DNA of 64,000 nt, taken from assembly GCA_041661385.1 (NCBI GenBank), contig JBAZUP010000001.1, positions 7,382-71,381 on the forward strand, written 5' to 3'. How positions within the stretch are numbered: position 1 is the stretch's first letter; every line of letters begins with the position of its first letter. The notes below the pieces were generated by a model. The model searched no databases. It was given only the letters and a program-made list of their open reading frames with translations, and was not told the origin of the DNA. Below, piece by piece: positions 22,955 to 63,809 of this stretch. The stretch comes from Patescibacteria group bacterium (GTDB taxonomy: Bacteria; Patescibacteriota; Patescibacteriia; Magasanikbacterales; GWA2-37-8). Made by a program: the position numbers and the translations under genes.

Positions 22955-25900
22955 ATGCAGAATGTATTAAAATTAGGCCGTAAAGTCCTAACCGTTAGTA
23001 CCGTCTTCAGTACCATTTTGTGGTCTGTAGGTGTCTCAGCTTTGGTACCAGCAATGGCCCAAGCCGAAACCTGCCCAACTTTCAAGTCGGGTGACCTCAT
23101 TAAAGTAACTGGCCGACCAGCCATTTACGCTGTTGATTCTAACGGCAAAGTTCTTTATTTCCCAAGTGGAGATGAATTCAAGAGTTGGAATTCCAATGAT
23201 TCCTACGGTGGTTATACCGCCATTTCACAAGCATGTTACGACGCGCTTCCAGTGCCAAGTATGGCCCCAATGGGTGTCAACTTCCGCCCTGGTTCATATG
23301 TTGTCAAGCGCATTTCCTCAGATCAATTATATGTAATAGAACCAAACAACACTTTGGCCAAAGTTACCTCTGAGGTAGCCAAAGCATTGTATGGAACTAC
23401 CTACAAAGCAAGAACAGTAGCCGATGTATTCTGGAACAGTTACACCAACCGTGCAGCTGATCTTACAGAAGCAAAAGCTCACCCAGGCATGCTCATCAGC
23501 AATGGTGGCAAAACCTATTTTGTGAACACCGACGGCTCACTTTCACAAGTTTCAGCCACTGGTTTCACAGCCAACCGCTTCAAACAAGCCTTCGTTCGCC
23601 CGGTCGCCAGCATCGCTGGTTTCACCATGGGTGCCGAAATTGCTGCTGAAGACGGAAAGACTTCTGACCGAACTCAAACTGGCGGCGTAGTTGCAACCAT
23701 TCCTGGTGGCACCGTTTCCGGCGGTTCTGTTTCAGTTGGTCTCGCAATCGATAACCCAGCAGCCGGTTTATTGGCTTCTGGTACCGCTTTCAATAAAGTA
23801 TTGAAAGTTACTTTGACTGCCGGTTCCGCTGATGTTGCTGTTACTGGTTTAACCCTCAAGAAGAGCGGTTTTGCTGCTAACTCAGCTATCAACGGCGCTG
23901 ATGTTGTAGATGCTTCTGGAGTTCGCCACGGCAACGTGTCCGGATCCATTGACACCGACAACAACCTCACCCTATTGTTCTCTGGCTCTCCAATTGTTGT
24001 AAAAGCCAATTCCAGCCAGACTGTAACAGTTCGCGTGAATATTGCCGCATCTGGTACCACCGGTACCATGCAGTTCAGCTTAGCTGGTTCAGGTTCTGTC
24101 ACCACCAACGGTGGTTCAGTATCCGGCAGCTTCCCTGTCACTGGTAACGTTTTCACCTTACAAGATGGTTCAAACGCTATTGCCGCAGTAGCATTGAATG
24201 AACAACCAGTTAACGCCTCTGGCGCTACCTTGAACGTTGATTCAAACAATGAACAAGAAATTGCGAAGTTCTCAATCAATGAAACATCCAGCCGTGAAAA
24301 TGTTCAATTAAGCAGCCTTACCCTTTACAACAATGGTACTTCTGCTGACACTGACATCCAAGATGTTCAATTGGTTGGACAAGACGGCACCGTTCTTGCC
24401 ACAGCTCAACAGCTCAACAAGACCGTTGTCTTCAGCCTCGTCCCTGCTTATAACATCGACAAAGGCGTCACCAAGAACTTTACCGTTCGCGCTAAAATCG
24501 TAAATGGTGCAGCTCGTACCATTCAATTCGTAGTTTACAATGACTATGATGCGATTTTGGTCGGTGGTAACACTGGTGCAAACATCTTACCAACAACCAC
24601 CTCTGGTGGAACTGCTGGTACAGGTACAACTTTCCCAGTAGGTAACAAGACCAGTTATAACCTTGTAACTATTGGTTCAGGTTCTATCAGCTTTAACAAG
24701 GACACCTCTTCACCTTCATCCGCTATTTCCCCAGGAACTAACGGTGTTGTAATCGCGAAATTCTTCGCGAAGCCAACTGGTGAAAACATGGAACTCCGCC
24801 AAATTTCCTTGAACATCGTCACTTCGACCCCGTCATTATTGACTGGTTCAGTAGTTGTCAAGGTTAATGGCGCTTCCGTATGGAGTGGTTCGCCAGCATT
24901 ATTTGCCGGTGCCGCATTAACAGAAACCCTTTCTTCCTATCCTGTCTTGACTGCTGGTCAGAACAGCTACATTACGGTTGAAAGCAATGTTATGAGTGGT
25001 GCTGCTAGTGGCGAAACAGTTTACGCCGCTATGGACCTCGTCCAAGTTAAACGCTTAGTAACCAACGACATTGTTGACCCAGGCACAAACAGCTCACAAG
25101 GCAACACCTTGGCTGTGCAAGCTGCCGCACTGAAGGTAACCACCATGGCTACCCCAGTTGCGCAGAGTGTAGTTGCCGGTTCAGCCGGTGTAGTACTTGC
25201 CAACATTGAATTAAATGCTGGTACAGTATCTTCTGGTGAAGACGTCCGAGTTTCCAAAATTGTCATTTCTGACGTTTGGTCAGGAACTTTGACTGATATT
25301 GGAAACCTCGCATTGTATGATGCTAATGGTAATCAGATTGTGACTACCGCAAGCACCGCTACTAATGCCGCTTCATCTTCGTTCAACCTTGCCAACCCAA
25401 TCACTGTGCCAAAAGCCGGTGCTGTTACTCTCACTCTAAAAGGTGATGTATTAACTGGTACCACTTCAACCCACAAATTCTCCGTTGCTAGCATTGCGGA
25501 CGTTACTGCTACTGGCATTTCAACTGGTAACTCTTTGAGTTCAACCATTACGGGTGGCGTTGGTTCTGGTCAGTTATTGTCCGTTACTGGCTCTGGCACA
25601 TTGTCATTGTCCACAGTTTCTGGTGGTTCAGCCTCACCTTCGAACGACCAAACAGTCCTCGTTGGTCAGACTGCCGTTCCAGTATTCGCAGTTAAATTAA
25701 CTGCACAAAATGAACCAATTAAGATCACCAGCTTCAAGATTACCGCTACTGGTACTATTGGTACATCTAACGACATTGTGAACTTGAAACTTTATCGTGA
25801 CAACGATACAGCTCCGTTCGCATCTGCTGGTCAAATGAACTACGTCAGTGCAAACAACTACACATACACTTGGACTGCTACCGATAACCTGCTCCCAGCA

Positions 25901-26623
25901 GCGGTACAACCAGGCACCCCAGTAACCATCTACGTCAAAGCTGACGTAGGTGCACAGGGAAATGTAGTTATCGGTGACAGCTTCCGCTTCGCATTCGCCA
26001 CCAACACCGACATCGGTGCCAAGGGCGCTTCCAGCGGTCAGACTTTGGTCAATGCTTCTATAGTTGGTACTCCAGCTGTAACTGCATTCACTTCCATTGT
26101 TCCGTTCAGCGTTTCACTCGCTGCACAGGCTCCAACTGGCAACCAGACTCAATCAATTGTGGCTGGCACTCAGTTAGCAATTGTTAAAATCACCAACAAT
26201 GGTGGTTCAAAGATTACTGTTACCGGTGTTAAATTCACTGATAATGGTACTCACTCTGGTTCAACCACAACTTACAAGTTGTATTACTCAGATTTGAACT
26301 CTGTTAATTTCGTTGGTAACACAGCTTCTAGTACTTGGACTAGCGTAGATTTCTCGAATCTTACTGCTTCAAGCACAGGCACCGGTCCCTTCACCATTGA
26401 TGGTGGAGCCTACCGCTACGTCACTGTTGCTATCAATACACTTGGTTCCGCTGTTTCTGGAGATAACTTCCAATTGTCAATTGCATCACTTGGTGATGTG
26501 AAATACTCAGTTGTTGGTTCAGATCTCGGTTATAGCGTAGATGCCAGTGGTAATTTGGCAACTGTTGCAACCGGTCTCAAAGCTGATGGAAAACCATCCT
26601 TAGCCACTCTTTCCAAGCAATAA
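22955..26623 (+). CDS. giant secreted surface protein (S-layer/adhesin-like, T/S/G/V-rich beta repeats)
   Basis: Sec signal peptide MQNVLKLGRKVLTVSTVFSTILWSVGVSALVPAMA|QA. ~1220 aa rich in Thr/Ser/Gly/Val/Ala with repeated Ig-like segments. First ATG at 22955; the track's GTG is at 22934. Confidence 0.6.
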   Translation: MQNVLKLGRKVLTVSTVFSTILWSVGVSALVPAMAQAETCPTFKSGDLIKVTGRPAIYAVDSNGKVLYFPSGDEFKSWNSNDSYGGYTAISQACYDALPVPSMAPMGVNFRPGSYVVKRISSDQLYVIEPNNTLAKVTSEVAKALYGTTYKARTVADVFWNSYTNRAADLTEAKAHPGMLISNGGKTYFVNTDGSLSQVSATGFTANRFKQAFVRPVASIAGFTMGAEIAAEDGKTSDRTQTGGVVATIPGGTVSGGSVSVGLAIDNPAAGLLASGTAFNKVLKVTLTAGSADVAVTGLTLKKSGFAANSAINGADVVDASGVRHGNVSGSIDTDNNLTLLFSGSPIVVKANSSQTVTVRVNIAASGTTGTMQFSLAGSGSVTTNGGSVSGSFPVTGNVFTLQDGSNAIAAVALNEQPVNASGATLNVDSNNEQEIAKFSINETSSRENVQLSSLTLYNNGTSADTDIQDVQLVGQDGTVLATAQQLNKTVVFSLVPAYNIDKGVTKNFTVRAKIVNGAARTIQFVVYNDYDAILVGGNTGANILPTTTSGGTAGTGTTFPVGNKTSYNLVTIGSGSISFNKDTSSPSSAISPGTNGVVIAKFFAKPTGENMELRQISLNIVTSTPSLLTGSVVVKVNGASVWSGSPALFAGAALTETLSSYPVLTAGQNSYITVESNVMSGAASGETVYAAMDLVQVKRLVTNDIVDPGTNSSQGNTLAVQAAALKVTTMATPVAQSVVAGSAGVVLANIELNAGTVSSGEDVRVSKIVISDVWSGTLTDIGNLALYDANGNQIVTTASTATNAASSSFNLANPITVPKAGAVTLTLKGDVLTGTTSTHKFSVASIADVTATGISTGNSLSSTITGGVGSGQLLSVTGSGTLSLSTVSGGSASPSNDQTVLVGQTAVPVFAVKLTAQNEPIKITSFKITATGTIGTSNDIVNLKLYRDNDTAPFASAGQMNYVSANNYTYTWTATDNLLPAAVQPGTPVTIYVKADVGAQGNVVIGDSFRFAFATNTDIGAKGASSGQTLVNASIVGTPAVTAFTSIVPFSVSLAAQAPTGNQTQSIVAGTQLAIVKITNNGGSKITVTGVKFTDNGTHSGSTTTYKLYYSDLNSVNFVGNTASSTWTSVDFSNLTASSTGTGPFTIDGGAYRYVTVAINTLGSAVSGDNFQLSIASLGDVKYSVVGSDLGYSVDASGNLATVATGLKADGKPSLATLSKQ

Positions 26624-26676
26624 TCCGCTTGAGTTAGAAACTAAGCACAGTTTCTCGATAGCTCACAATCGTCAAA

Positions 26677-26708
26677 ACCACCTGCCTTCGGGCAGGTGGT
26701 TTTTGTTT
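26677..26708 (+). terminator. rho-independent terminator after the surface-protein gene
   Basis: accacctgcc-ttcg-ggcaggtggt followed by TTTTGTTT. Confidence 0.75.
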
Positions 26709-26734: not shown

Positions 26735-27190
26735 CCACCCATTTTGTGCGCCCAAAACGGGTGGATCCCAAAAGGCGCCGAGCTGATACTTAGCTCGGCA
26801 AATGCCTCGGCGAAATCAAAACGATTTTTTCAAAAGTGCAAGGTCGCATTGAAAAAATCTAATTTCGTCGGGCAGTTTGCGGCTCGCTTCATATAGGCTC
26901 GGTCACGAATTGTTACCAATTGGCGAGTCCGAGTCTTTTGTGAAGCGATGCCACTTGTCTGGGCGAGGTGAACGTGGGTGGCGCAGTTGTTTGAGCCCAC
27001 AGGCGAGTTCTGCGCCACAGTGAGACGAGCCCTAGAAAGTGGCGAAGTGGAACAACCGACTCGGAGCCTTTTTGGTTTCTTTTTGGGCGAACAAAAAGAA
27101 ACCGCTCGCCGCGCAGGCGTGGCAGCCAGTCCGGCGAGGACTGTTGTTTGAGTAACAGCCAGATTGGTGACTATCTTTGACAAAGACCCG
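26735..27190 (+). repeat. intergenic modular repeat, copy C
   Basis: Shares the loop-ttgtgc hairpin, module M2 (gattttttcaa...ttgaaaaaatc palindrome, ~90% identical to copy B) and a cagaactcg/ctcaaacagctg segment in inverted orientation. Confidence 0.55.
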
Positions 27191-27252
27191 TTATTTAACT
27201 ATAATAAGCGAAGCTTCAACCCCTTAATGAAGTCCCTTTTTTATAATTTATT

Positions 27253-29316
27253 ATGTCAAAAAAGCACATCGAAACGATAATAAAATGGTTAATTTTCGCC
27301 ACCTTTTTTGTCCCGCTCGTCGTCGCGCCGAGTTCATTTATCTTTCCTTTCATTGTTCCTAAAATTCTTCTTTTCCGTTCGCTTACTACCCTTATTATTG
27401 CGCTATACGCCATTCTTTTATATATCAACCCCGCTCAATATCGCCCCCGCGCTTCTTGGTTAAATTGGGCAGTACTCGGTTTTCTAGTTAGTTTTACCCT
27501 TTCTACTTTTTTTGGTTCTGATCCGTATCACAGTTTTTGGGATAACCACGAACGCATGCTTGGTCTTTTTACCATTATTCATTATATTGCTTATTTTTTT
27601 ATATGCGCCCAGGTATTTCGTACCTGGGAGGATTGGAAATTGGCATTGCAAATCTTTTTAGTTGCCGGATCTTGTGTAATGTTTGTCGGATTGCTCCAAG
27701 TATTTAATCCAAATTTTCTTCTTAATGGCGGAAGTGGGCGTGTTATAGCGACAGTTGGCAATGCTATTTATGTCGGTGGTTATGGTTTATTTTTGTTTGC
27801 GGTTGCTAGTTTGTTATTTTTGAAAGAAAAAAATATTTGGTTAAAAGTAATATACGTTTTACTTGCGATTTTGGCGCTCATCGGCATTATTTTCAGCGGC
27901 ACCCGTGGTTCTTTACTTGGTTTAATATTTGGTATTGGCCTTGCGATGATAAGTTATGCTTTTACTTTAAAAGGAAAATCAAAAGTAAAAAATTATTTAT
28001 TAGGAGCTATAATTTTGGGCGTAGCGGTTTTGGGGCTCGCTTATGTAAATCGCCAGTCCAAATTTGTTACCGATATTCCGGCGCTTTCTCGCGTTCTAAA
28101 TACTTCTGTAAAAGAATTACAAGAGGGTGCCCGTGTCATTGCTTGGGGGGCGGCGTTTCAGGGCTGGAAAGACCGACCGATTCTCGGTTGGGGTCCAAAT
28201 AACTTTTTCTATGCATTTAATGCCCATTATGACGCTCGTTCGCTAGAATACGGCTATGGTGAAACCTGGTTCGATAATGCCCACAACATTTTGGTAAATA
28301 CGCTTGCAGTACAAGGGGTAGTTGGCATTATTACTTATCTTGCTATTTTTGCCGCCGCAATTTATATGTTAGTTTCGGCTTACCGAGGTGGTCGGGTCGA
28401 TCGGCACATTGCAGTTATTGGCGCAGCTTATCTCATGGCCCATTTACTTGAAAATGTTACAGTATTTGAAAATCCGACTTCATATTTATATTTTGTATTC
28501 TGGCTCGCCATGATCAACAGTTTGTCTAAAGTTGTTTTTGTAATTAGTGCGGAAAAAAATAAAGTAGTTTTAGATCAAAAAGCCGGTAACGGAATATTGC
28601 TTGGAGCCGGGCTTACCGCGGCGTTATTTATTTTTGTTCTCAATATTCAACCTGCCCGCGCGAATATGAAAACTTTGGACGCGCTTCAAATGATTAATGG
28701 AGATGTGACTCAATCTGTACCGCTTATTGAATCTGCGCTTGATTTTAATTCGCCTCACATTGATGATATCAGAAGTGATATTAGTAGAACACTCGTTGGT
28801 TCGCTTGGTGACACTAGCAGCAAGCTCGATGTTAGTTTAAAAAAACAGCTTTATAATATAGTTGAATCTTCAATGCTTGCGAATATTGAATTACACCCCT
28901 ACGACATTCGCAATCACTTAACTCTTGCGCAACTTTATCAAACTTTTGCGATTCAAAATAATGACGCGAGCGAAATGATAAAAGCCGAAAAATATTTGAC
29001 GGACACGATGGCTCTTTCACCTCGTCGCCAGCAGGTTATATATAATCTAGCAATTGTAAAACTTCAACTCGGTAAGGTGGCAGAAGCTGAAACATTATTT
29101 AAGCAAACTATTACCGATGATCCAAAGATCGCCGAAGGATATTTCCGCCTTGCTTATATGTTTGCGGCAATCGGCCAACCCGAAAAGGCTCTCGCGGTAA
29201 TAAAACAAGCCAGCGACAATAATGTTACCCTTGGCGAAGATCAATTAAATGCTATTAATCAAGTAATCATACAGGCTGCCAAAGCTGCCGGAGCGTCAAC
29301 TAAAACTAAGAAATAA
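27253..29316 (+). CDS. Wzy_C / O-antigen-ligase-family membrane protein with C-terminal TPR domain (candidate O-oligosaccharyltransferase or polymerase)
   Basis: ~10 TM N-terminal domain with a Wzy_C-like loop (FSGTRGSLLGLIFGIGLAM). C-terminal soluble region of TPR-like repeats (LAQLYQTF..., YNLAIVKLQLGKVAEAE, YFRLAYMFAAIGQPEKA). Confidence 0.7.
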   Translation: MSKKHIETIIKWLIFATFFVPLVVAPSSFIFPFIVPKILLFRSLTTLIIALYAILLYINPAQYRPRASWLNWAVLGFLVSFTLSTFFGSDPYHSFWDNHERMLGLFTIIHYIAYFFICAQVFRTWEDWKLALQIFLVAGSCVMFVGLLQVFNPNFLLNGGSGRVIATVGNAIYVGGYGLFLFAVASLLFLKEKNIWLKVIYVLLAILALIGIIFSGTRGSLLGLIFGIGLAMISYAFTLKGKSKVKNYLLGAIILGVAVLGLAYVNRQSKFVTDIPALSRVLNTSVKELQEGARVIAWGAAFQGWKDRPILGWGPNNFFYAFNAHYDARSLEYGYGETWFDNAHNILVNTLAVQGVVGIITYLAIFAAAIYMLVSAYRGGRVDRHIAVIGAAYLMAHLLENVTVFENPTSYLYFVFWLAMINSLSKVVFVISAEKNKVVLDQKAGNGILLGAGLTAALFIFVLNIQPARANMKTLDALQMINGDVTQSVPLIESALDFNSPHIDDIRSDISRTLVGSLGDTSSKLDVSLKKQLYNIVESSMLANIELHPYDIRNHLTLAQLYQTFAIQNNDASEMIKAEKYLTDTMALSPRRQQVIYNLAIVKLQLGKVAEAETLFKQTITDDPKIAEGYFRLAYMFAAIGQPEKALAVIKQASDNNVTLGEDQLNAINQVIIQAAKAAGASTKTKK

Positions 29317-29321
29317 TCAAT

Positions 29322-29396: not shown

Positions 29397-30182
29397 ATGA
29401 AAACAATAATCCTTTGTGGTGGCACCGGTACCAGAATGAAAGAGGAAACTGAATTTAAACCAAAGCCCTTGGTTTTGGTCGGTGGAAAGCCAATTCTTTG
29501 GCATATTATGAAAACATACGCTCATTATGGATATAATGATTTTATTTTAGCGCTTGGGTATAAAGGAGACATGATTAAGCAGTATTTCTTAAACTGGCGG
29601 AATTATACTAATGATTTTACTTTGAGTACCAAAAATCATGAAATAACTTTTCATAATAATGATGTGGATGATTTTAAGATTACCTTCGTCGAAACCGGCG
29701 AGAATAGCTTGACCGGTGAGAGGGTCCGTCGTTGTGCGAAGTACCTTGGAACGGATGATTTCATGATTACTTATGGTGACGGTCTCGCTGATATTAATAT
29801 TAAACAACTGGTTGATTTTCATAAAACTCAAAATACTATTGGCACGACTACTGCCGTTCATCATATCAACCGGTTCGGATTATTGGATATTGATTTTAAA
29901 ACTAACAAATTAAAAGGTTTTTATCAGCACAAAGTAACTGAAGAAAACGATCGTCAGCAAGCCAAAGATTTCATCAATGGCGGTTTTATGGTTTTTAAAA
30001 ATGAAGTGTTGAAGCAAGTTGAAGCTGATAGTATGATAGAAAGCATTTTTGAGCCGCTTGCCGTGGCTGGTCAAATGTCAATTTTTGAACATAATGGCAA
30101 GTGGAAATGCATGGATACTTATAAGGAAGTCGAAGAAATGAATGAACTTTGGAAAAAGGATCCGTTTTGGAAAGTTTGGTAA
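29397..30182 (+). CDS. rfbF: glucose-1-phosphate cytidylyltransferase
   Basis: MKTIILCGGTGTRMKEETEFKPKPLVLVGGKPILWHIM. 261 aa, highly characteristic of RfbF/DdhA. Confidence 0.9.
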   Translation: MKTIILCGGTGTRMKEETEFKPKPLVLVGGKPILWHIMKTYAHYGYNDFILALGYKGDMIKQYFLNWRNYTNDFTLSTKNHEITFHNNDVDDFKITFVETGENSLTGERVRRCAKYLGTDDFMITYGDGLADINIKQLVDFHKTQNTIGTTTAVHHINRFGLLDIDFKTNKLKGFYQHKVTEENDRQQAKDFINGGFMVFKNEVLKQVEADSMIESIFEPLAVAGQMSIFEHNGKWKCMDTYKEVEEMNELWKKDPFWKVW

Positions 30183-30196
30183 TTAACCAATTTTTT

Positions 30197-37923: not shown

Positions 37924-38042
37924 TTGATTTTACGCATAAATTAGCTAAAAAGTCAGGTTTAACCTTGATTTTTTTGCTATTTTAGGGTATTATTATTGGT
38001 CTTTTGGCCACTCTCGGCCGAAAGCAAACCAGGAGAGAATCC

Positions 38043-54104: not shown

Positions 54105-54133
54105 TTGACTTTTTTGACTAAAAAAGTTATATT
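54105..54133 (+). promoter_or_regulatory. sigma70 promoter for the gmhA operon (TTGACT-17 nt-TATATT)
   Basis: TTGACT at 54105-54110, TATATT at 54128-54133, ~40 nt upstream of the gmhA ATG. Confidence 0.5.
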
Positions 54134-54173
54134 AGTATTGATTAAAATAGTTGTATTTTCTTTAAAGAAGCTT

Positions 54174-54779: not shown

Positions 54780-54781
54780 TT

Positions 54782-55351: not shown

Positions 55352-55355
55352 TTTT

Positions 55356-57054: not shown

Positions 57055-57071
57055 TCTATGTTATATATAAT

Positions 57072-58169
57072 ATGCAGCGACCACGAGTAGCCATTATAGG
57101 TGCTGGAATTTTCGGGATTAGTTGCGCTCTAGAGCTTGGAGAAACTTGCCAAGTTACCGTATATGAGCAAAACAGTGAAATTATGCGCGGAGGAACTTAT
57201 GGTAACCAGTATCGGCATCACTTTGGCTATCACTATCCGCGTAGCCCCGAAACCGTACGGCAATGCCAAGAAGCCGAAAAAGATTTTGTTGATCTCTGGG
57301 GCGAAGCGATTATTGGTGACTTTCCCGCCTACTATGCTATTGCTACTGAAGGTTCTAAAATAACGGCAGAGCAGTTCTTTGCTTTTTGTGAATCTCAAAA
57401 ACTTCCGTATGAAATAAGCTATCCGAGTCGGGATTTTTTGGATCGTAGTCATGTGGAGACTTGTGTTAAAACAAAAGAGCCAGTATATAATTATTCCCGT
57501 TTGTGTAAACTGGCTAGTGATAAAATCTTGTCTAATCCGCATATTCAGGTTAAAACGGGGAATACAGTAGTCGGTTGTGAGTTTAGTAAAGTGGATGATA
57601 CAAAGATTGTATTTGTAAAAACGGCGCAAGGAGATACATATCATGACTCGTTTGATTTTGTGATTAATGCAACCTACGCGAATCATAATCAGTTTTGCAA
57701 CTGGCTTGGTTTCGCCGTGCCTCCGATTGAGTTTAGGTTGAAGGAGCTTGTTGTTGTTGAGCTTCCTAAGCCAAAATTTCTTGCGGTAACGGTTATGGAC
57801 GGACCATTTGTGACGCTTGTTCCTATGGGGAAAGAGGGGAGGTATACCTTAGGAGACGTAGCGCGTTCTCTTCATGATGTAAAAATTTCTAATGATGGCC
57901 CGCCTTGGTCAAAAGCGGATATTGCCGGGCGAGTTTCCCGATTTCCTGAAATGCAAGAGAATGATCCGTTTTTTATCCCTGCCATCAAAGACGCTAAGTA
58001 TATCCAATCGATTTATTCAATTTTACCTATTCGCCCTAATTCCGACGCCACAGATGAGCGTATCACCTCGGTTACCAATCATGGACGAGGATGTTGGTCG
58101 GTGTTTGAAGGAAAAATTATTACATGCGTTACCGCCGCAAAAACAATTAAGCGAAATCTGCAAATGTAG
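57072..58169 (+). CDS. FAD-dependent oxidoreductase
   Basis: RVAIIGAGIFGISCALEL dinucleotide-binding motif. 365 aa. Confidence 0.65.
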   Translation: MQRPRVAIIGAGIFGISCALELGETCQVTVYEQNSEIMRGGTYGNQYRHHFGYHYPRSPETVRQCQEAEKDFVDLWGEAIIGDFPAYYAIATEGSKITAEQFFAFCESQKLPYEISYPSRDFLDRSHVETCVKTKEPVYNYSRLCKLASDKILSNPHIQVKTGNTVVGCEFSKVDDTKIVFVKTAQGDTYHDSFDFVINATYANHNQFCNWLGFAVPPIEFRLKELVVVELPKPKFLAVTVMDGPFVTLVPMGKEGRYTLGDVARSLHDVKISNDGPPWSKADIAGRVSRFPEMQENDPFFIPAIKDAKYIQSIYSILPIRPNSDATDERITSVTNHGRGCWSVFEGKIITCVTAAKTIKRNLQM

Positions 58170-58321
58170 TGGTCGGTGGTTCATTTGCAAAAGCTGGGAG
58201 TTCTGCTAGAATTCATTCCAAAGGACAAACCGAAAAAAACTAAAATGTTGAATCTTGCGAAAAGTGTATTAATTATTAGTAATAGGAATACCTTAGAAAA
58301 ATATTTAATTAATAATTTTGT

Positions 58322-59044
58322 ATGAAAATATTTATCGACAGCGCAGAGGTAAAAGAGGTTGAGAAGTATCTCAGCTGGGGAATCTGTGATGGTGTAACTA
58401 CCAATCCAAGTATTTGTCTGAAATCTGGCGTAAAAGGTGGTGAAGAGGGTATGAAGAAAAGGGCAATCGAGATTGCAAAATTAATTTCACCAAATCCCTT
58501 GAGCGTTGAGGTGACTACCGATAATGAAGCAGAAATACTTGTTCAAGCCAGAAAATATAATGCCTGGGCTGAAAATATTTCCGTGAAGGTGACCATAACT
58601 GATAAAAATGGTGTTGGACTACTTCCTGTGATTTATAAGCTGGTCAGCGAGGGTGTTTCGGTAAATGTAACTGCGATGATGACTTTTAACCAGGCGATTT
58701 TGGCAGCCAAAGCAATTAACGCCGGACTCGCGGTTGCAAAAAATAAAAAGACCCACTTCATCAGTATTTTTGCCGGACGTGTTTCCGAGGAACATGGTGT
58801 AGAACAAGCTCAAAAAGTCCTTAAAGAAGTCAGAGAATGGTTAGATTTTCATAATTATAAAAATATTGAAATAATTGTCGGTTCGGTGCGCACTCCGGAG
58901 AACGTAGAATTATGGAGTAAGAGCGGTGCACACATTCTTACAATACCGCCGGAGGTTATCTCAAAATGTTTGATGTCGGCTCGTACTAAAGAGACTGTCG
59001 TGCAATTTTTAGGCGATGCCAGCAAAGCCCTGCAACAGTTATAA
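58322..59044 (+). CDS. tal: transaldolase / fructose-6-phosphate aldolase family
   Basis: MKIFIDSAEVKEV...GVTTNPS N-terminus and active-site lysine region. 240 aa. Confidence 0.85.
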   Translation: MKIFIDSAEVKEVEKYLSWGICDGVTTNPSICLKSGVKGGEEGMKKRAIEIAKLISPNPLSVEVTTDNEAEILVQARKYNAWAENISVKVTITDKNGVGLLPVIYKLVSEGVSVNVTAMMTFNQAILAAKAINAGLAVAKNKKTHFISIFAGRVSEEHGVEQAQKVLKEVREWLDFHNYKNIEIIVGSVRTPENVELWSKSGAHILTIPPEVISKCLMSARTKETVVQFLGDASKALQQL

Positions 59045-59192: not shown

Positions 59193-60020
59193 ATGGGAAT
59201 CGGCAATCAAAAAATCTCGGCCTGTATTGTGGTTTATAACGAAGAAAAACTCATTGAACGCTGCCTGAAAAGTATTTATGGATTTGTTGATGAAATAATA
59301 TTGGTGCATGATGGGGAATGTTTAGATAAAACACTGGAAATCGCCAAAAAATATACGGATAAGATATTTATCAGGGAGCATATTGGTATTGCGGAGCCTC
59401 ACCGGAGCTTTAGCTATAGAGAAGCAAAGAACGAATGGATCTTGCAGGTTGATGCCGACGAATATTTTGCGAAAGAGGATCTGGAAAAAATATCGAATTT
59501 ATTGGAAACAGGTATAGCCGACGGCTACTGGATTAAGTGGGAAATGTGGAATGGTAAAGAAGCTGTTCGTATCGATGGTCTAAAGAAAATGGCTTTGTTT
59601 AAAAAAAGCAAAGCCTCAAATCTTGGCATCCCTCAAGTCGCAGTCGCCATTAATGGAAAAACAGAAAATGTTGACATTTTATTACATCACAAACCTCTTA
59701 CTGAAAATATTTCCTGGAAATTTTTTTTAAAAAAGATGAATTATTGGTTGGTATCTAATGTTAAATACTACTTCCCTGAATTGGTTGAATACGAATGTTT
59801 CAATGCCGATATTAATCCGTGGATTGAATATACAAAAAAAGTTCACAAATATCCGTTTTTTTACATATTTTTTTATCCATTGAAGAATTTTTTTGGACAG
59901 TTAAAAAATGGACTGTGGAAGACTCCACTCGGAATAAACATGGCGATACAACAATTTGTATATTATTTTTCTCTATATTCTAGAGTATGGAAAATGGACC
60001 GAAAGTTAAAATCGCACTAG
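59193..60020 (+). CDS. glycosyltransferase family 2
   Basis: ISACIVVYNEEKLIERCLKSI and VDADE (DxD). Confidence 0.75.
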   Translation: MGIGNQKISACIVVYNEEKLIERCLKSIYGFVDEIILVHDGECLDKTLEIAKKYTDKIFIREHIGIAEPHRSFSYREAKNEWILQVDADEYFAKEDLEKISNLLETGIADGYWIKWEMWNGKEAVRIDGLKKMALFKKSKASNLGIPQVAVAINGKTENVDILLHHKPLTENISWKFFLKKMNYWLVSNVKYYFPELVEYECFNADINPWIEYTKKVHKYPFFYIFFYPLKNFFGQLKNGLWKTPLGINMAIQQFVYYFSLYSRVWKMDRKLKSH

Positions 60021-61159
60021 TTAGAGGTGACAGTCTTAATGAATGGGAGGGTAAGTTGTGGGGAAAGCTACCCCGTAATTTCGACGTAACCGGATTTTGT
60101 TCGGCCAATAATTTGTATGATGCAAAAAGTTTATCATTTCCTGTCAAGACCTTGAGATCGACCGGAGATAATTTTTTTATAAATAATATTTGCAAATATG
60201 GACTGGGAGTCTTTCAAAAAATGTATGGTCTTGAAAATGAATTAAAGGACTTCGAAATAGCTCATACTGCGGAAATTTCGTATTTTTATACTTTACAAGC
60301 TGTCCGCGCCAAAAAAATAAATCCAAAACTAAAAGTTGTCACCACGGTATGGGATAATAGTTTTGGTAGATTTGAGTACAATTATATTTTCGGTTTGAAA
60401 GCACCTCAATTTTGGGTGCAGAAAATGCTGAGAAACATGCAAGAAATAGTCGAAGGCGTGGACATGTTTTTACCAGTAAGCAATTTAAGTGCTGCAACAC
60501 TCACCGATCTTGGTGTAGATCAAAAAAAGATCACGATTCTGACGCCTGCTGTAGATTCTGCCGGCGAACCAAAAAAGAAAATCTCAGATTATGCGCCTCA
60601 CTTGGAAGGAAAACAACCATATTTTATGGTTTGTAGGCTGGTGAAAGAAAAGGGCGTTTACGACGTTTTATATGCATGGAAAATGTTAAAGAAAGAAAAT
60701 AAGGCAGAAGACAAAGTATTATTGATCGTAGGTAAAGGACCAGAAGAACAAAATATGCGTCGTTTGGTTGCGGAATGGCATTTAGAAAAATTGATTATAT
60801 TTTTGGGTTTGATTCCGAACAGTGATCTGAAGTTTTTTTATCGTGATGCTAAGGCGTTGATATTGGCAAGCCTGCCGGGTCCGCTATGGCAAGAGCAATT
60901 TGGTTATGTTATAGCAGAAGCAATCAATCAGGGGTGTCCGGTTGTCAGTACTTATTCGGGAGCTATTCCTGAAGTCATTGGAAACGCTGGTTTGCTTTTT
61001 TCTCCAGGAAATCCAGTGGAGTTAAAAAATTGCTTGAAAAAATTAGATGATGTGAATGTGTACAGACAATTGCAAACGAATTGTGAAACAGTAAAAGAAA
61101 AATTTTTAACTGAAAAATTCGTTTCTAGATTAATAGAAATATATACAAATTTAAAATAA
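59987..61159 (+). CDS. glycosyltransferase family 4 (GT-B)
   Basis: C-terminal motif EQFGYVIAEAINQGCPVVSTYSGAIPEVI. Confidence 0.8.
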   Translation: MENGPKVKIALVRGDSLNEWEGKLWGKLPRNFDVTGFCSANNLYDAKSLSFPVKTLRSTGDNFFINNICKYGLGVFQKMYGLENELKDFEIAHTAEISYFYTLQAVRAKKINPKLKVVTTVWDNSFGRFEYNYIFGLKAPQFWVQKMLRNMQEIVEGVDMFLPVSNLSAATLTDLGVDQKKITILTPAVDSAGEPKKKISDYAPHLEGKQPYFMVCRLVKEKGVYDVLYAWKMLKKENKAEDKVLLIVGKGPEEQNMRRLVAEWHLEKLIIFLGLIPNSDLKFFYRDAKALILASLPGPLWQEQFGYVIAEAINQGCPVVSTYSGAIPEVIGNAGLLFSPGNPVELKNCLKKLDDVNVYRQLQTNCETVKEKFLTEKFVSRLIEIYTNLK

Positions 61160-61163
61160 ACAA

Positions 61164-61841
61164 ATGAAAAATTTCTTAAAATTTTTATCAATATTGAGCC
61201 AAACTGGTCTAAGAACCATATATTTTAATTTTAAATATTTGTCTTTTAATCAGGCAATCCATTTTCCAATTTTGGTTTCACGGAACGCGTTGATGAATAA
61301 AGCAGGCGGAAGAGTTGTTATTAATTGTCCAATTCGTCCCGGGTTAATAAAGATTGGTTATAGCGGTGTTACAATTTTCGATTATAAAAGATCAAAATCG
61401 GTTTGGGATGTTTCTGGGCTTGTGACATTCGGTGGCAAGGCTAATATCGGTCACGGAGCAAAAATATCAGTGGGAGAAAATGGCGAGGTTTATTTTGGGG
61501 AGAATTTTATTTTATCGGCCGAAAGTTCAATCGTCGTAAGTAACAAGAGAGTCGTGTTTGGAAATGACACTCTTCTTTCATGGAATATTCTTGTTATGGA
61601 TACAGATTTTCATGTTATAAGAGATTCCGCAGGCAAAGTTATAAATGAACCAAAGGATATAATATTAGGCTCGCATGTTTGGGTTGGTTGTGGATCTGTT
61701 ATTTTGAAAGGTAGTATCATTCCAAATGATTCCATAATTGCAGCGAACAGCCTTGTATCCGGAGTATTAACTGGAGAAAAGAAAATATTTGGTGGCCAGC
61801 CGGCTAAAGAGCTTAAAAGTGAAGTAATTTGGGAATTATAA
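61164..61841 (+). CDS. hexapeptide-repeat (LbH) acetyltransferase
   Basis: Repeated [LIV]GxxxxI hexapeptides (IGHGAKISVGENGEVYFGENFIL...ILGSHVWVGCGSVILKGSIIPNDSII). Confidence 0.75.
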   Translation: MKNFLKFLSILSQTGLRTIYFNFKYLSFNQAIHFPILVSRNALMNKAGGRVVINCPIRPGLIKIGYSGVTIFDYKRSKSVWDVSGLVTFGGKANIGHGAKISVGENGEVYFGENFILSAESSIVVSNKRVVFGNDTLLSWNILVMDTDFHVIRDSAGKVINEPKDIILGSHVWVGCGSVILKGSIIPNDSIIAANSLVSGVLTGEKKIFGGQPAKELKSEVIWEL

Positions 61842-61842
61842 T

Positions 61843-62508
61843 ATGTCAGTTGAGCAGCTTAAGTACAATTTTTCCGACGACCAAACCGGAGTGCATCGAC
61901 TGATTTTGGATAGGATTCCACCAAACAGTCGGGTTCTTGATGTTGGTTGTGCCACTGGTTATCTTGGTCAACGGTTAGTGCTGTCAGGCTGCGAGGTATG
62001 GGGTATTGAGCCGGATAAAACCAGCTATGAACATGCTCTTAATAAAGGATATAAAAATATTATCAATCTCTCTGTTGAAGCCGCGCTGGAAAGTGATATC
62101 ATAAAGAATGAGAAATTCGATAGAATAATCGTTGCTGATGTTTTAGAACACCTAGTTAATCCGATCTTGGTCCTAAATTCGCTGAAGATACATAGTAAAC
62201 CGGACGGAAAAATTTTAGTATCTTTACCAAATATAGCTCATTATTCAATTCGTTTGGCATTATTATTTGGAAAATTTGATATGGTTGACACTGGAATTTT
62301 AGACAAGACCCACCTGCATTTCTACACACTTAAAGCAATGTATAAATTATTGGAAGACGGAGGTTGGAAAATCGAGGAGGTGCGGCCGCGCGGTGATCTT
62401 GAACGCTGGTTCAGGAAGATCGGACTAGAGAAAGTGGGAAAATTTTTTCAATTTATATTTCAAAAAATATTTGCGTACCAATTTATTATTATCGCACGTC
62501 CCTTGTAA
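61843..62508 (+). CDS. class I SAM-dependent methyltransferase
   Basis: RVLDVGCATGYLG motif I and DRIIVADVLEHL motif II/III. Confidence 0.7.
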   Translation: MSVEQLKYNFSDDQTGVHRLILDRIPPNSRVLDVGCATGYLGQRLVLSGCEVWGIEPDKTSYEHALNKGYKNIINLSVEAALESDIIKNEKFDRIIVADVLEHLVNPILVLNSLKIHSKPDGKILVSLPNIAHYSIRLALLFGKFDMVDTGILDKTHLHFYTLKAMYKLLEDGGWKIEEVRPRGDLERWFRKIGLEKVGKFFQFIFQKIFAYQFIIIARPL

Positions 62509-62517
62509 AATTATATT

Positions 62518-63096
62518 ATGAAAAAATTTTTGAGTAATTTATATTATAAATATTTAAATCGCACTGAGTCGCATAATATTGGCTGTGATTATACAAAAAG
62601 AGTTTTAAAGAACAGATTTTTTGAGATTGGTGAATATACTTATGGTATTCCCAAAGTTATCGGTTTTGGTTCAGAAAAAAATCGGTTGGTTATCGGTAAG
62701 TTTTGCTCATTTGGTTCCGATATTCAGATTTTTTTATGTGCAGATCACAGAATTGATTGGGTTACGAGCTACCCGCTTGGTTTATTAAAAGGCGTTATTT
62801 CCAAAGCCGGAGGCAATATCGGCAAGGGTGATATATTGATTGGGAATGATGTTTGGGTGGGAAATAATGCGCTAATTATGTCTGGCGTTAAGATCGGCAA
62901 TGGAGCAGTCATTGGTGCTGGTTCAATTATAACAAAAGATGTTTTGCCATATGAAGTTGTCGCTGGAAATCCGGCTCGGCACATCAAGTTTAGATTCTCA
63001 GAGGAAAAAATTCAGAAATTACTGGAAATGAAGTGGTGGGATTGGTCAATCAAGGAGATAATTTCTAAATCTGATTTTTTAAGTTCTCCTTTCTAA
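62518..63096 (+). CDS. xenobiotic-acetyltransferase-family (XAT) hexapeptide acetyltransferase
   Basis: [51 protein letters not shown]. Confidence 0.8.
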
Positions 63097-63116
63097 GTTT
63101 TAGTGATTGATTTTGT

Positions 63117-63809
63117 ATGCTTCATGTTTCGATTATCATCCCAACTTATAATGAAGCCGACAACTTGGAGCCGCTGCTGCAAGAAATTTTTTCGTCAGTT
63201 GATAAAAATCGATTCGATGTCGAGGTTATTATAGTGGATGATAATTCACCCGATGGTACCGGTAGGATTGCCGACCAGCTTTCGGTTCGTTTTCCTCTTC
63301 AGATTATACATCGTTCCAGTAAACTCGGTCTCGGTAGCGCTGTGCGTGAAGGGTTTGCAAAGTCAAAAAGAGATGTTGTTGGAGTAATGGATGCCGATTT
63401 AAGCCATGATCCAAATATAGTTAATAAACTTCTCGGCGAATTGGAAAATGGCGCTGACCTGGTGATCGGGAGTCGTTTTGAAGAGGGAAGCGTGGTAGAA
63501 AAATGGAAATGGTGGCGGAAGGTTATTTCTAAAACGGGTGTTTTTATTACTAAATTTATCACTGGTGTAAATGATCCGCTCAGTGGATATTTTTTTCTGA
63601 GAAAAAAAGTCATTGACGGCGTTGATCTGACAGCGACTGGTTATAAAATTTTGTTGGAAATATTAGTTAAAGGAAATCACGGACCAGTGAAGGAGGTTCC
63701 GTTCCGCTTTAGAATTCGACTTCATAGTACAAGTAAGCTTAGCGCGGTCGAATACTGGCTATTTTTTCAGCAGATTATTGCTTATGGTTGGTATAAGTTA
63801 TTTAGATAG
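63117..63809 (+). CDS. GT2 dolichol/polyprenol-phosphate mannose(hexose) synthase-like
   Basis: VSIIIPTYNEADNLEPLLQEI...VIIVDDNSPDGTG and DADLSH. Soluble, 230 aa. Confidence 0.8.
   Translation: MLHVSIIIPTYNEADNLEPLLQEIFSSVDKNRFDVEVIIVDDNSPDGTGRIADQLSVRFPLQIIHRSSKLGLGSAVREGFAKSKRDVVGVMDADLSHDPNIVNKLLGELENGADLVIGSRFEEGSVVEKWKWWRKVISKTGVFITKFITGVNDPLSGYFFLRKKVIDGVDLTATGYKILLEILVKGNHGPVKEVPFRFRIRLHSTSKLSAVEYWLFFQQIIAYGWYKLFR

Follow-up and report, generated by a model that had tools for sequence, protein, structure and literature searches.

A Magasanikbacteria cell-surface locus with a giant secreted protein, a WaaL/PglL-type enzyme and a sugar cluster: a candidate surface-protein O-glycosylation system

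Results

Organization of the locus

The window, the whole 64-kb stretch of DNA analysed here, belongs to Patescibacteria/CPR and, by the names of related database records, to Magasanikbacteria. Domain and profile searches of its open reading frames showed that the coordinates and gene content that an earlier note had given for 22955–63809 are real (Table 1; proteins are named below by their first coordinate). Nearly all genes are on the plus strand, but the glycan cluster is not strictly single-stranded, as had been claimed, because the B12-binding radical SAM gene is on the minus strand. The gene classes previously listed are present; the list had, however, omitted the TPP enzyme, NUDIX, GFO/IDH, DAO and transaldolase genes and a syntenic HTH/ECF-sigma/DUF5667 module (19515–22724). 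Among 80 related loci the HTH_17 regulator is syntenic in 20 (64–87% identity), the ECF sigma gene lies 5' of the giant gene in 27, and the DUF5667 gene, which occupies an anti-sigma-like position, is syntenic in 30.

Table 1 Features of the locus and the basis of their assignment.
Feature	Position	Strand	Basis
HTH_17 regulator	19515–19940	-	Pfam HTH_17; divergent from ECF sigma gene
ECF-type sigma factor	20796–21350	+	Pfam Sigma70_r2 and r4_2
DUF5667 single-pass membrane protein, S/T/P-rich C-terminal tail	21357–22724	+	Pfam DUF5667, translation
Secreted surface protein, 1222 aa, S-layer-like	22955–26623	+	Signal peptide, wall-anchor module, variable body
Intrinsic terminator	26674–26703	+	13-bp stem, 7 GC pairs, T-run; 3' of surface-protein gene
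Sigma-70 promoter, perfect consensus TTGACA-17-TATAAT	27177–27205	+	12/12 matches
Wzy_C/WaaL-fold glycan ligase, TM13 + extracytoplasmic TPR domain; candidate oligosaccharyl:surface-protein O-transferase	27253–29316	+	
Glucose-1-phosphate cytidylyltransferase-like	29397–30182	+	NCBIfam TIGR02623, 266.7 bits (cut-off 300)
CDP-glucose 4,6-dehydratase-like SDR	30149–31150	+	TIGR02622, 199 bits (cut-off 278)
Acetolactate-synthase-like TPP enzyme	31157–32929	+	Pfam TPP_enzyme N, M, C; TIGR00118, 458 bits (cut-off 538)
Two SDR epimerase/reductase genes	32932–33825, 33809–34870	+	Pfam Epimerase
FkbM-family methyltransferase	34892–35818	+	Pfam Methyltransf_21
Polyprenyl-phosphate GT2, PgfS/ArnC-like	35829–36767	+	NCBIfam PgfS 184.6, ArnC 112 bits, both below cut-off
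Acyltransferase-3 (O-acetyltransferase)	36778–37923	+	Pfam Acyl_transf_3, 110.6 bits
NUDIX hydrolase	38004–38627	+	Pfam NUDIX
RfbH/DdhC (E1) CDP-6-deoxy-4-hexulose 3-dehydrase, 3,6-dideoxyhexose step	38778–40085	+	NF011936, 706.5 bits (cut-off 423)
GT-C-fold membrane glycosyltransferase, PimE/PIG-M-like	40090–41613	+	Predicted structure, Foldseek
GDP-mannose 4,6-dehydratase (Gmd)	41610–42635	+	TIGR01472, 564 bits (cut-off 415)
DegT-family enzyme, RfbH-like (ColD-type 3-dehydrase or aminotransferase)	42608–43798	+	Pfam DegT; NF011936 194.7 bits, below cut-off
GDP-L-fucose-synthase-like SDR (Fcl/ColC-type)	43802–44749	+	NF047922, 462 bits (cut-off 500)
GT2 glycosyltransferase	44739–45521	+	Domain search
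Wzx/MOP-family flippase	45527–46825	+	Pfam Polysacc_synt, Polysacc_synt_3; weak MOP flippase match
GT2 glycosyltransferase	46838–47620	+	Domain search
TylF-family O-methyltransferase	47693–48433	+	Domain search
GT4 glycosyltransferase	48464–49801	+	Domain search
Sugar-1-phosphate nucleotidylyltransferase	49798–50517	+	Domain search
HddA-like GHMP heptose kinase	50592–51584	+	HddA 171.6 bits, below cut-off
HD-domain protein	51608–52357	+	Weak match (E 9e-4)
B12-binding radical SAM, methyltransferase-type	52408–53943	-	Sole minus-strand cluster gene; GC-rich patch
GmhA-like SIS isomerase (54105), GmhB-like phosphatase (54713), NTP-transferase	54105–56078	+	Heptose activation
GFO/IDH/MocA oxidoreductase, DAO-family FAD oxidoreductase, transaldolase (58322)	56089–59044	+	
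GT2 (59193–60020), GT4 (59987–61159) glycosyltransferases	59193–61159	+	Domain search
Hexapeptide transferase, class-I methyltransferase, second hexapeptide transferase	61164–63096	+	Domain search
Short GT2, polyprenyl-phosphate-sugar synthase type, AglJ/PpgS-like	63117–63809	+	Profile search

The giant protein is, as the earlier note had proposed, a Sec-secreted T/S-rich protein of about 1.2 kaa: it carries a signal peptide (MQNVLKLGRK...VPAMAQA/ETC) and contains 23% S+T and two Cys. Searches of Pfam gave no match and no relatives were found in the PDB. The protein consists of a conserved N-terminal module of ~200–250 aa followed by a variable T/S/G/A/V-rich body, and in its family the top-residue frequency is 0.56–0.65 in the anchor module versus 0.31–0.45 in the body. 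In homologues from other CPR lineages the N-terminus is swapped for PG_binding_1. The surface-protein gene appears to form its own transcription unit, since a terminator lies behind it and a new promoter, 48 bp 5' of the start codon, precedes the Wzy_C-TPR gene; this layout is consistent with a structural gene transcribed on its own and a dedicated glycan operon behind it.

Sugar pathways, glycosyltransferases and tailoring enzymes

All three nucleotide-sugar pathways claimed for the cluster are present. The CDP-hexose branch comprises 29397, 30149, the RfbH/E1 protein 38778, the TPP enzyme 31157 and the two SDRs, the GDP-mannose branch Gmd (41610), the RfbH-like DegT enzyme (42608), the Fcl-like SDR (43802) and the NUDIX hydrolase (38004), and the heptose branch 54105, 54713, 50592, two NTP-transferases and the transaldolase 58322. 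The TPP enzyme probably puts a two-carbon branch onto a 4-keto sugar in a YerE-like manner, while the transaldolase may supply sedoheptulose-7-P. Neither an E3 partner for RfbH nor an initiating phosphoglycosyltransferase was found within the 64-kb window.

The Wzx flippase and the tailoring set (FkbM, TylF and class-I methyltransferases, two hexapeptide transferases, acyltransferase-3 and the B12-radical SAM enzyme) were found as described earlier. We counted five GT2 (35829, 44739, 46838, 59193, 63117) and two GT4 enzymes (48464, 59987); these seven include both polyprenyl-phosphate-type GT2s and thus fall short of the "at least eight" plus two previously listed. The 40090 protein, put forward as a second polytopic candidate polymerase or GT-C, has no match in Pfam or NCBIfam, and its homologues carry PF26314. 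Its AF2 model (pLDDT 87) is closest in Foldseek to PimE (9dm5, E 1.4e-4) and GPI-mannosyltransferase I (GPI-MT-I, 9wno); the protein thus has a GT-C fold and is not a Wzy. Because 40090 is a GT-C, the cluster has a Wzx without a second Wzy-like protein. The 40090 enzyme may act on the outer side of the membrane, with a polyprenyl-phosphate sugar as its donor. Against an O-oligosaccharyltransferase (O-OTase) reading of the locus, the GT-C/GT2 pair could be the protein glycosyltransferase instead.

The Wzy_C-TPR enzyme

The 27253 protein is a Wzy_C membrane protein with a TPR tail, as had been noted: Pfam places Wzy_C at aa 204–363 (70.4 bits against a cut-off of 31.7), with TPR around aa 570–660. 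It has 13 TM helices, and the K/R-rich loops KEKN, KGKSKVK, YRGGRVDRH and EKNK fall on alternate sides of the membrane, an arrangement in which the catalytic loop and the TPR domain face the exterior. The profile of the TM domain matched WaaL (7tpg, 1.4e-12), which is the best fold match, and a solved chain named "Oligosaccharyltransferase" (9rmk, 4.2e-12), and the motifs GTRG/R218, pRxxxW/R294 and AHN/H344 align with both. Residues H344, G355 and G358 are invariant; H344-N-X9-G355-X-X-G358 corresponds to the ligase/OTase His motif of the WaaL literature. Because the enzyme is equally close to WaaL and 9rmk, its sequence and fold accommodate a protein and another acceptor alike. The PglL-class markers PglL_A and Wzy_C_2 are absent at E<=0.001 in Pfam, which counts against the PglL/WsaB-type O-OTase that had been proposed.

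The architecture speaks for that proposal. Whereas plain WaaL has 12 TM helices, the 27253 enzyme adds a thirteenth and an extracytoplasmic TPR domain. A review reports the combination of Wzy_C with a TPR region at the C-terminus for WsfB, a predicted S-layer O-OTase, and for PglL (PMC2943079). WsaB is without TPR and its adjoining gene encodes the TPR protein WsaA (PMC2943079). Jorgensenbacteria loci likewise encode a 450-aa Wzy_C protein and then a separate 186-aa protein that aligns to aa 493–617 of the 27253 protein (E 1e-6), so that the alternation of fused and split forms seen between WsfB and WsaA/WsaB recurs here.

Conservation and linkage

Across 80 species genomes carrying the Wzy_C-TPR enzyme, its identity is 44–65%, while the glycan genes 3' of it vary widely. 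Its identity correlates with that of the ECF sigma factor (r=0.70), DUF5667 (r 0.67) and the giant protein (r 0.52), and not with that of the sugar genes (Gmd r -0.06, Fcl r -0.43, GT-C r 0.15). This pattern fits a glycan-tolerant enzyme tied to a conserved acceptor.

A giant-family gene lies 5' of Wzy_C in 37/80 loci, and the linkage of surface-protein and Wzy_C genes is kept in three CPR lineages. Where the upstream sequence extended for 4.5 kb or more, the first tblastn pass matched 33/60 loci, and in this first search no such gene was found beside Wzy_C in 25/56 loci with at least 6 kb upstream. A later profile search added a few loci. In one genome (L020) both genes share a scaffold but are widely separated (locus tags _94 and _439), and one giant-family locus (L087) has a free TPR protein only and no Wzy_C within 8 kb. 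Common descent partly explains the synteny within the class. In Jorgensen- and Brennerbacteria-type loci the pairing is kept even though the anchor is a different domain, PG_binding_1, and the other neighbours (ClpB, HtrA, SIMPL) are not those seen here; the common part is thus the giant-protein body plus Wzy_C. Genes of known O-OTases such as TfpO, TfpM and PglS typically adjoin the substrate gene (PMC12645811), as the 27253 gene adjoins that of its candidate substrate.

Discussion

The best explanation of our data is a cell-surface locus of an uncultured, ultra-small Magasanikbacteria cell, in which the gene of a giant wall-anchored surface protein, a conserved WaaL/PglL-type enzyme and a 34-kb sugar cluster that varies between strains most likely constitute a surface-protein O-glycosylation system. 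Such a system, if true, would be so far undescribed for the phylum Patescibacteria. We tentatively favour, at somewhat short of even confidence, the 27253 enzyme as an O-OTase of WsfB or WsaA/WsaB architecture that acts on the neighbouring surface protein.

Unlikely yet credible is a ligase that transfers to a non-protein acceptor (peptidoglycan, a lipid anchor or another wall polymer) and so makes a capsule or a secondary polymer of the cell wall; the surface protein would then be linked only as a fellow envelope component or as a polymer binder. The equally WaaL-like fold and catalytic residues suit this, as does the sizeable minority of loci in which the enzyme is away from a giant-family gene. 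The window contains no LCP ligase, and some enzyme must attach wall glycans. In Firmicutes, genes for the S-layer-anchoring polymer often adjoin S-layer genes. TPR domains also double as polysaccharide-export scaffolds, to judge from the title of a reference cited in PMC2943079. An anchoring ligand should be constant, yet the adjacent glycan genes are hypervariable while the anchor module is the most conserved part of the surface protein, and the Wzy_C linkage persists where the anchor is PG_binding_1, which needs no special polymer.

An improbable reading makes the enzyme a Wzy-type polymerase of a Wzx/Wzy pathway, producing an S-layer glycan or capsule that an enzyme encoded elsewhere attaches. 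It is the sole Wzy_C-family protein beside the Wzx flippase in the window, Pfam Wzy_C includes polymerases too, and NCBIfam "oligosaccharide repeat unit polymerase" matches weakly (19 bits, cut-off 40). But polymerases are repeat-unit specific and usually move with their cluster, whereas this enzyme is conserved across loci with unrelated glycan sets and its divergence does not follow the sugar genes; the S-layer glycan polymerase offered in the earlier note is accordingly disfavoured. The retained His motif, aligned with WaaL and 9rmk, and the lack of a Wzz/PCP co-polymerase in the 64-kb window also argue against it.

We hold it very doubtful that the protein is glycosylated stepwise by the 40090 GT-C with polyprenyl-phosphate monosaccharides from 35829 and 63117, as in PMT/Ppm1 or the streptococcal Pgf system, with the Wzy_C-TPR enzyme serving a different glycoconjugate. 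The PimE- and GPI-mannosyltransferase I-like fold is consistent with this, as are the best NCBIfam match of 35829 (PgfS, of S. mutans adhesin glycosylation), the resemblance of 63117 to AglJ/PpgS-type synthases and six loci (L002, L004, L015, L033, L044, L061) in which a 63117-like GT2 immediately follows Wzy_C-TPR and precedes a 40090-like GT-C. However, 40090 homologues occur in only 10/80 loci, indicating an accessory, cluster-specific GT-C rather than the surface protein's conserved partner, and its nearest structural relatives act on lipid-linked glycans, not proteins.

A classical WaaL of a diderm cell, joining O-antigen to lipid A-core, is scarcely conceivable despite the fold match and the database name "O-antigen ligase family protein". 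The wall is monoderm in the few CPR cells described to date (PMC8871954), in keeping with the monoderm, CPR-like host on which the earlier note had made its proposal conditional, and CPR fall within Terrabacteria (10.1101/2020.07.15.205187). The 64-kb window contains no lpx, waa or lpt genes, and TM13 and the TPR domain are foreign to WaaL.

Under the O-OTase reading, the N-terminal module of the exported surface protein would hold it on the wall and leave the variable, hydroxy-amino-acid-rich body exposed. The promoter before Wzy_C-TPR would drive the transferase and about 35 glycan genes, whose cytoplasmic products may be a CDP-3,6-dideoxy (possibly branched) hexose, a GDP-6-deoxy or 3,6-dideoxy hexose and an NDP-heptose. 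An initiating transferase encoded outside the window, followed by the GT2 and GT4 enzymes, would build an oligosaccharide on undecaprenyl diphosphate, with methyl and acetyl groups added, and Wzx would flip it outward. The conserved R218, R294 and H344 could then bind the Und-PP donor, and the enzyme would pass the glycan on en bloc, to an acceptor outside the cytoplasm that the outward-facing TPR domain holds. This acceptor would most likely be a Ser, Thr or Tyr residue in the surface protein encoded alongside, the candidate O-glycosylated substrate, which would make the enzyme an O-oligosaccharyltransferase. The glycan may then be decorated outside the membrane, both by the acyltransferase-3 and by the 40090 GT-C, for which the polyprenyl-phosphate GT2s would supply the substrate.

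Gene content of the locus

ORF listing combined with Pfam and NCBIfam scans confirmed the gene map of the earlier note, and the locus is a real, well delimited and uncharacterised system. Housekeeping genes (ybeY, dgkA, ftsA, ftsZ, nrdR and SHMT) lie upstream of it, and 35 further genes follow the gene for the Wzy_C-TPR protein (hereafter the enzyme). The sequence comes from an ENA metagenome contig, and exact and close homologues are annotated as Patescibacteria or Candidatus Magasanikbacteria. Among the papers searched, on CPR O-antigen ligases, S-layer glycosylation, protein glycosylation in Patescibacteria and Magasanikbacteria, none treated the enzyme family, the system or any other Patescibacteria protein-glycosylation system.

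Coordinates of the features discussed, in window positions
Feature	Start	End	Strand
Two proteins with TSP3 repeats	831	2783	
UMPH-1 gene adjoining Elp3-like gene	8427	10964	-
tRNA-Val	15749	15823	
588-aa surface-type protein	17739	19505	-
HTH protein	19515	19940	-
ECF sigma factor	20796	21350	+
DUF5667 membrane protein	21357	22724	+
Giant surface protein	22955	26623	
Non-coding spacer	26704	27176	
57-nt piece of the spacer (approximate)	26973	27029	
Wzy_C-TPR enzyme	27253	29316	
Acetolactate-synthase-like TPP enzyme	31157	32929	
PgfS/ArnC-like GT2	35829		
Acyltransferase-3	36778		
RfbH	38778	40085	
GT-C gene	40090		
B12-radical-SAM enzyme	52408	53943	-
AglJ/PpgS-like GT2	63117		
End of the glycan cluster		63809	

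The giant surface protein

The giant protein was translated as a 1222-residue product with a Sec signal peptide (…VPAMAQA/ETC). It is dominated by small and hydroxylated residues (T 11.8, S 11.4, A 11.0, V 10.9, G 10.2 and N 6.9%) and contains two cysteines. A Pfam search relaxed to E<=10 returned nothing for the protein, a PDB profile search found no relatives and self-BLAST revealed no internal repeats. Within the family the N-terminal ~200 residues, which are anchor-like, are the most conserved, and variability of the body rises toward the C-terminus. A search for this N-terminal module among the other proteins of the 80 related loci that we compared found none, and in other CPR lineages a homologous body (about 79% coverage) carries PG_binding_1 at the N-terminus in place of the anchor module. 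The signal peptide, the large and almost Cys-free chain, the hydroxy- and small-residue-rich composition and the conserved anchor joined to a variable exposed part are those of a wall-anchored surface protein. It is a candidate S-layer protein; a 2024 preprint describes predicted S-layer proteins in Patescibacteria, with no details that could be matched to this family.

Upstream, the DUF5667 membrane protein is encoded just behind the ECF sigma factor, where an anti-sigma gene usually lies, and ends in a low-complexity tail rich in S, T and P (…TTSLTTLPLPKYPTSTISTTPKVQSSTPPISTH). As general O-oligosaccharyltransferases (O-OTases) target regions of this type, the tail is a possible second substrate of the enzyme. 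Between the giant gene and the enzyme gene, a consensus terminator lies 3' of the former and a perfect TTGACA-17-TATAAT promoter 5' of the latter. No gene remnant was found in the 630-bp gap, and the 470-bp non-coding spacer from terminator to promoter likewise contains no gene remnant and no Rfam match. A 57-nt piece of this spacer has ~80% identity to other positions in two related loci, L025 and L058. The Rfam scan found nothing in the locus, its sole match in the window being the tRNA-Val.

Linkage of the surface protein and the enzyme

To compare loci we used 80 related loci with 10-kb flanks, drawn from other genomes. By iterative profile search, 37 of them have a member of the giant-protein family encoded upstream of the enzyme. 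Sixty loci offered >=4.5 kb of sequence on that side, and in 33 of these a first tblastn pass had already given a match. The family is mostly accompanied by HTH, ECF-sigma and DUF5667 genes. An adjacent giant-family gene is missing in a sizeable minority of loci, and in one genome the giant-family and enzyme genes lie on the same scaffold but far apart.

The linkage was also traced from the protein side, using six giant homologues of the PG_binding_1 type. For five of them Wzy_C is encoded no more than about 3 kb downstream. The enzyme is split at three Jorgensenbacteria-type loci, where a 444-450-aa Wzy_C protein precedes one of 186-188 aa; the single short protein that was compared aligned with the TPR region of the window enzyme (E 1e-6). 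Brennerbacteria carry a collinear 647-aa Wzy_C-TPR fusion (28% identity, E 9e-51). In L089 (12014-19849) two Wzy_C-TPR paralogues and a free 227-aa TPR protein follow the giant gene, and in L087, the sixth locus, a free 239-aa TPR protein alone follows it (11772-12491), Wzy_C being absent within 8 kb. The flanking genes differ by lineage (ClpB, HtrA and SIMPL versus ECF and DUF5667), and the pairing of giant gene and Wzy_C is thus not merely inherited gene order.

Other arrangements were also seen. A second, unrelated family of ~1000-1226-aa proteins with an N-terminal membrane anchor takes the place of the giant protein directly upstream of Wzy_C-TPR in six further loci (L022, L029, L030, L037, L062 and L070), and in L034, L046 and L068 a T/S-rich protein of 641-1057 aa with a signal peptide lies a few kb upstream instead. 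In the closest relatives (L002, L003, L018 and L075) a homologue of the window acyltransferase-3 (51-60% identical) directly precedes Wzy_C-TPR. In L002 this gene stands between the giant gene and Wzy_C-TPR; in the window it is inside the cluster.

Fold and conserved residues of the enzyme

The 687-aa enzyme scores 70.4 bits for Pfam Wzy_C (PF04932; cut-off 31.7) over residues 204-363, and has TPR repeats at its C-terminus. An AlphaFold model (pLDDT 82) consists of 12 TM helices arranged as in WaaL, with the large external loop of that fold between TM9 and TM10, followed by a cytoplasmic linker, a 13th TM helix (residues 446-483) and a helical-repeat domain corresponding to the TPRs (residues ~489-680). 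Judged by the alternation of K/R-rich loops, the catalytic loop lies on the outer side of the membrane, as does the TPR domain. The top structural matches of the TPRs are OGT and SPY. A single-sequence PDB search retrieved TPR proteins only, and profiles were required for matches to the membrane domain. A profile restricted to the membrane domain matched WaaL (7tpg, E 1.4e-12) and a solved 610-aa "Oligosaccharyltransferase" (9rmk, E 4.2e-12). Profile A4 scored 9rmk at 48.8 bits versus 50.5 for WaaL, and the full-length profile A1 scored them at 32.5 versus 25.9 bits.

Three residues, R218 (in GTRG), R294 and H344 (in AHN), are invariant in 24-25 sequences. They align with the GTRG, vRLKIW and HAHN motifs of WaaL and with PRQIEW and HSHN of 9rmk. 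We take them to be the Und-PP-binding residues, that is, the Arg at the TM7/8 boundary, the Arg at the start of the external loop and the His of the H-N/S motif. Homologues of the enzyme number over 700, with lengths of about 680-700 aa and 45-64% identity, and a pattern scan found it in at least 203 species-level genomes.

Neither PglL_A (IPR031726) nor Wzy_C_2 (IPR021797) was detected in the enzyme; Pfam at E<=0.001 returned Wzy_C and TPR families only. These two domains, beside Wzy_C, mark O-OTases of the PglL/PglS class, and Wzy_C alone does not separate O-OTases from WaaL (PMC12645811). Judged by marker domains, assignment to the PglL class thus fails for the predicted protein; TfpO and TfpM likewise have neither domain (PMC12645811).

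The glycan cluster

The cluster encodes five GT2 and two GT4 glycosyltransferases, fewer than the eight or more of the earlier note. Its description as a single-strand cluster holds but for one gene, that of the B12-radical-SAM enzyme, the sole one on the minus strand. The three nucleotide-sugar routes proposed are real. The CDP-hexose route comprises cytidylyltransferase-like and CDP-glucose-dehydratase-like proteins, RfbH (706 bits, above cut-off) and an acetolactate-synthase-like TPP enzyme; the GDP-mannose route comprises Gmd (above cut-off), an RfbH-like DegT protein and an Fcl-like SDR; and the heptose route comprises GmhA-like, HddA-like and GmhB-like proteins, nucleotidyltransferases and a transaldolase. 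The setting of the TPP enzyme amid CDP-sugar genes is reminiscent of YerE-type branched-chain sugar synthesis, and its presence in the CDP route suggests that the product is a branched dideoxy sugar. The partner reductase of RfbH, E3 (RfbI/DdhD), is absent from the window, as are an initiating phosphoglycosyltransferase, Wzz and an LCP ligase.

The B12-radical-SAM and RfbH genes form GC-rich patches (0.46-0.47, with 0.32-0.40 around them). Together with the minus-strand orientation of the former, these patches suggest that the cluster is a mosaic assembled horizontally.

Gene 40090, earlier listed as a second polytopic candidate polymerase or GT-C, matched no PDB chain, Pfam or NCBIfam entry at the sequence level, and its identity was resolved by fold search alone. 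PF26314, the family found on its homologues, could not be identified in the Pfam copy searched or in the literature. The top fold matches of its model (pLDDT 87) are PimE (9dm5; Foldseek E 1.4e-4, TM 0.62), GPI-mannosyltransferase I (9wno), PIG-U, EmbB and ALG12. On these matches we rejected a second Wzy polymerase. The modelled fold identifies 40090 as a predicted GT-C enzyme, which resembles PimE and GPI-mannosyltransferase I in its membrane fold and in its pairing with polyprenyl-phosphate sugar synthases, here the PgfS/ArnC-like and AglJ/PpgS-like GT2s.

Comparison with known glycosylation systems

The closest parallels are the slg S-layer glycosylation loci, in which WsfB (Paenibacillus alvei) and WsaA/WsaB (Geobacillus stearothermophilus) are predicted oligosaccharyl:S-layer-protein O-transferases. 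WsfB and PglL combine Wzy_C with C-terminal TPRs, whereas WsaB lacks TPRs and the TPR protein WsaA is encoded just upstream (PMC2943079). The CPR family shows both states, as a fusion in the window enzyme and that of Brennerbacteria and as two proteins in the Jorgensenbacteria type, a likeness judged by published domain architecture. As in slg loci, the enzyme is encoded among nucleotide-sugar, glycosyltransferase and methyltransferase genes in a cell that is probably monoderm. In G. stearothermophilus the glycan cluster is one polycistronic unit of a single direction and export is by a Wzm/Wzt ABC transporter (PMC2943079), in place of the Wzx export predicted for the window. The window locus differs further in its predicted extra GT-C decoration step, its unrelated surface-protein family with a different anchor, its reduced-genome CPR host, and a far bigger glycan gene set that changes from one species to the next. 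The S-layer gene sgsE adjoins the G. stearothermophilus cluster.

With PglL, PglS and TfpO the enzyme shares a Wzy_C core that matches 9rmk_A, the aligned Arg/Arg/His (HSHN/AHN) motifs and, as predicted, en bloc transfer from an Und-PP-glycan at the outer face. It differs from them in its marker domains, in a C-terminal region made of a TM helix and a TPR domain, and in its candidate substrate, a 1222-aa wall protein rather than a pilin or periplasmic protein. The genes for TfpO, TfpM and PglS adjoin those of their substrates (PMC12645811). From this adjacency and the WsfB and WsaA/WsaB architectures, the window locus would, by analogy, function most like an slg-type S-layer O-glycosylation locus.

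In the eukaryotic TMTC1-4 and OGT/SPY proteins, a catalytic glycosyltransferase module is fused to TPRs that select protein acceptors. TMTC1-4 are GT-C enzymes using Dol-P-Man and OGT/SPY are GT-B enzymes using UDP or GDP sugars, unrelated in fold and donor to the catalytic part of the CPR enzyme; with non-homologous catalytic parts, the resemblance is a functional analogy only.

Function of the enzyme and its alternatives

Conserved linkage and a WsfB/WsaAB-like architecture favour the main idea of the earlier note, surface-protein O-glycosylation. We infer that the enzyme would glycosylate the giant protein, the best-supported reading of these sequences.

A serious alternative, which we rate below the O-OTase reading, is that the enzyme is a wall-polymer ligase. 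Two observations lower its standing: the giant protein keeps a conserved anchor beside variable glycan genes, and the linkage persists where PG_binding_1 replaces the anchor. On the same grounds, it is unlikely that the variable glycan serves as the ligand of that anchor.

The earlier note also offered an S-layer glycan polymerase. A Wzy specific for its repeat unit should co-vary with the cluster, and the enzyme does not. It is 44-65% identical over the 80 loci despite widely differing downstream genes: Gmd occurs in 46 loci, an Fcl-like SDR in 38, the CDP/TPP gene set in 5-6 and a short GT2 with a 40090-like GT-C and Wzx in 6, with GT-C homologues in 10 overall and other combinations elsewhere. 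Identity to the window enzyme rises with that of the genes upstream, at r 0.70 for the ECF sigma, 0.67 for DUF5667 and 0.52 for the giant protein. The sugar genes show no such correlation, with r -0.06 for Gmd, -0.43 for Fcl and 0.15 for the GT-C. No Wzz or GNVR domain was found among the scanned window proteins. A polymerase is therefore disfavoured by the sequence comparisons, whereas a ligase or OTase tied to a conserved acceptor should not travel with the glycan cluster.

Finally, we rejected a classical WaaL. The enzyme fails on architecture, with its TM13 and ~200-aa external TPR domain added to what in WaaL (7TPG/7TPJ, Cupriavidus metallidurans) is a ~400-aa, 12-TM protein with no extra domain. 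It very probably fails on acceptor too, as the envelope type of a host not known to make LPS renders lipid A-core implausible: the walls of those CPR cells that have been described are monoderm (PMC8871954), CPR are placed within Terrabacteria (10.1101/2020.07.15.205187) and the 64-kb window holds no lpx, waa or lpt genes.

Beyond O-glycosylation of the giant protein itself, we propose tentatively, at rather less than even confidence, that Patescibacteria may possess a lineage-wide, dedicated surface-protein O-glycosylation machine, the first CPR protein-glycosylation system, in which a vertically inherited enzyme with a WaaL fold and external acceptor-binding TPRs, fused or split, would load whichever glycan comes from the neighbouring, horizontally shuffled cassette onto the main wall-anchored protein. 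This would provide the first assigned CPR surface-layer glycoprotein and give episymbionts a plug-in means of surface variation for host attachment and phage evasion. CPR bacteria make up a large share of bacterial diversity, are mostly uncultured and live attached to or dependent on other cells, and their surface chemistry is largely uncharted. The locus makes this surface glycobiology directly testable, through a trio of conserved surface protein, conserved WaaL-fold/TPR transferase and hypervariable cassette for rare sugars, namely 3,6-dideoxyhexoses, heptose and possibly a branched sugar, together with methyl and acetyl decorations. An O-OTase of relaxed glycan specificity would explain how reduced genomes diversify their surfaces, would extend S-layer-type O-glycosylation beyond Firmicutes and, with acceptor recognition in a separable TPR module, could serve glyco-engineering.

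Other features of the window

Among the MAGs that match, many bear the title "uncultured Gammaproteobacteria bacterium" (TPA assemblies) and a few others "Candidatus Udaeobacter". They carry the Patescibacteria-specific enzyme gene at 45-55% identity and in the same synteny, and these titles are therefore probably wrong. Elsewhere in the window, two further surface-type proteins contain bacterial TSP3 repeats, the second as a weak match only. A eukaryote-type pyrimidine 5'-nucleotidase (UMPH-1) adjoins an Elp3-like radical-SAM and GNAT protein, both of which are unusual in bacteria. The 588-aa surface-type protein has weak DUF11/CARDB-like matches and is present in 13 related loci.
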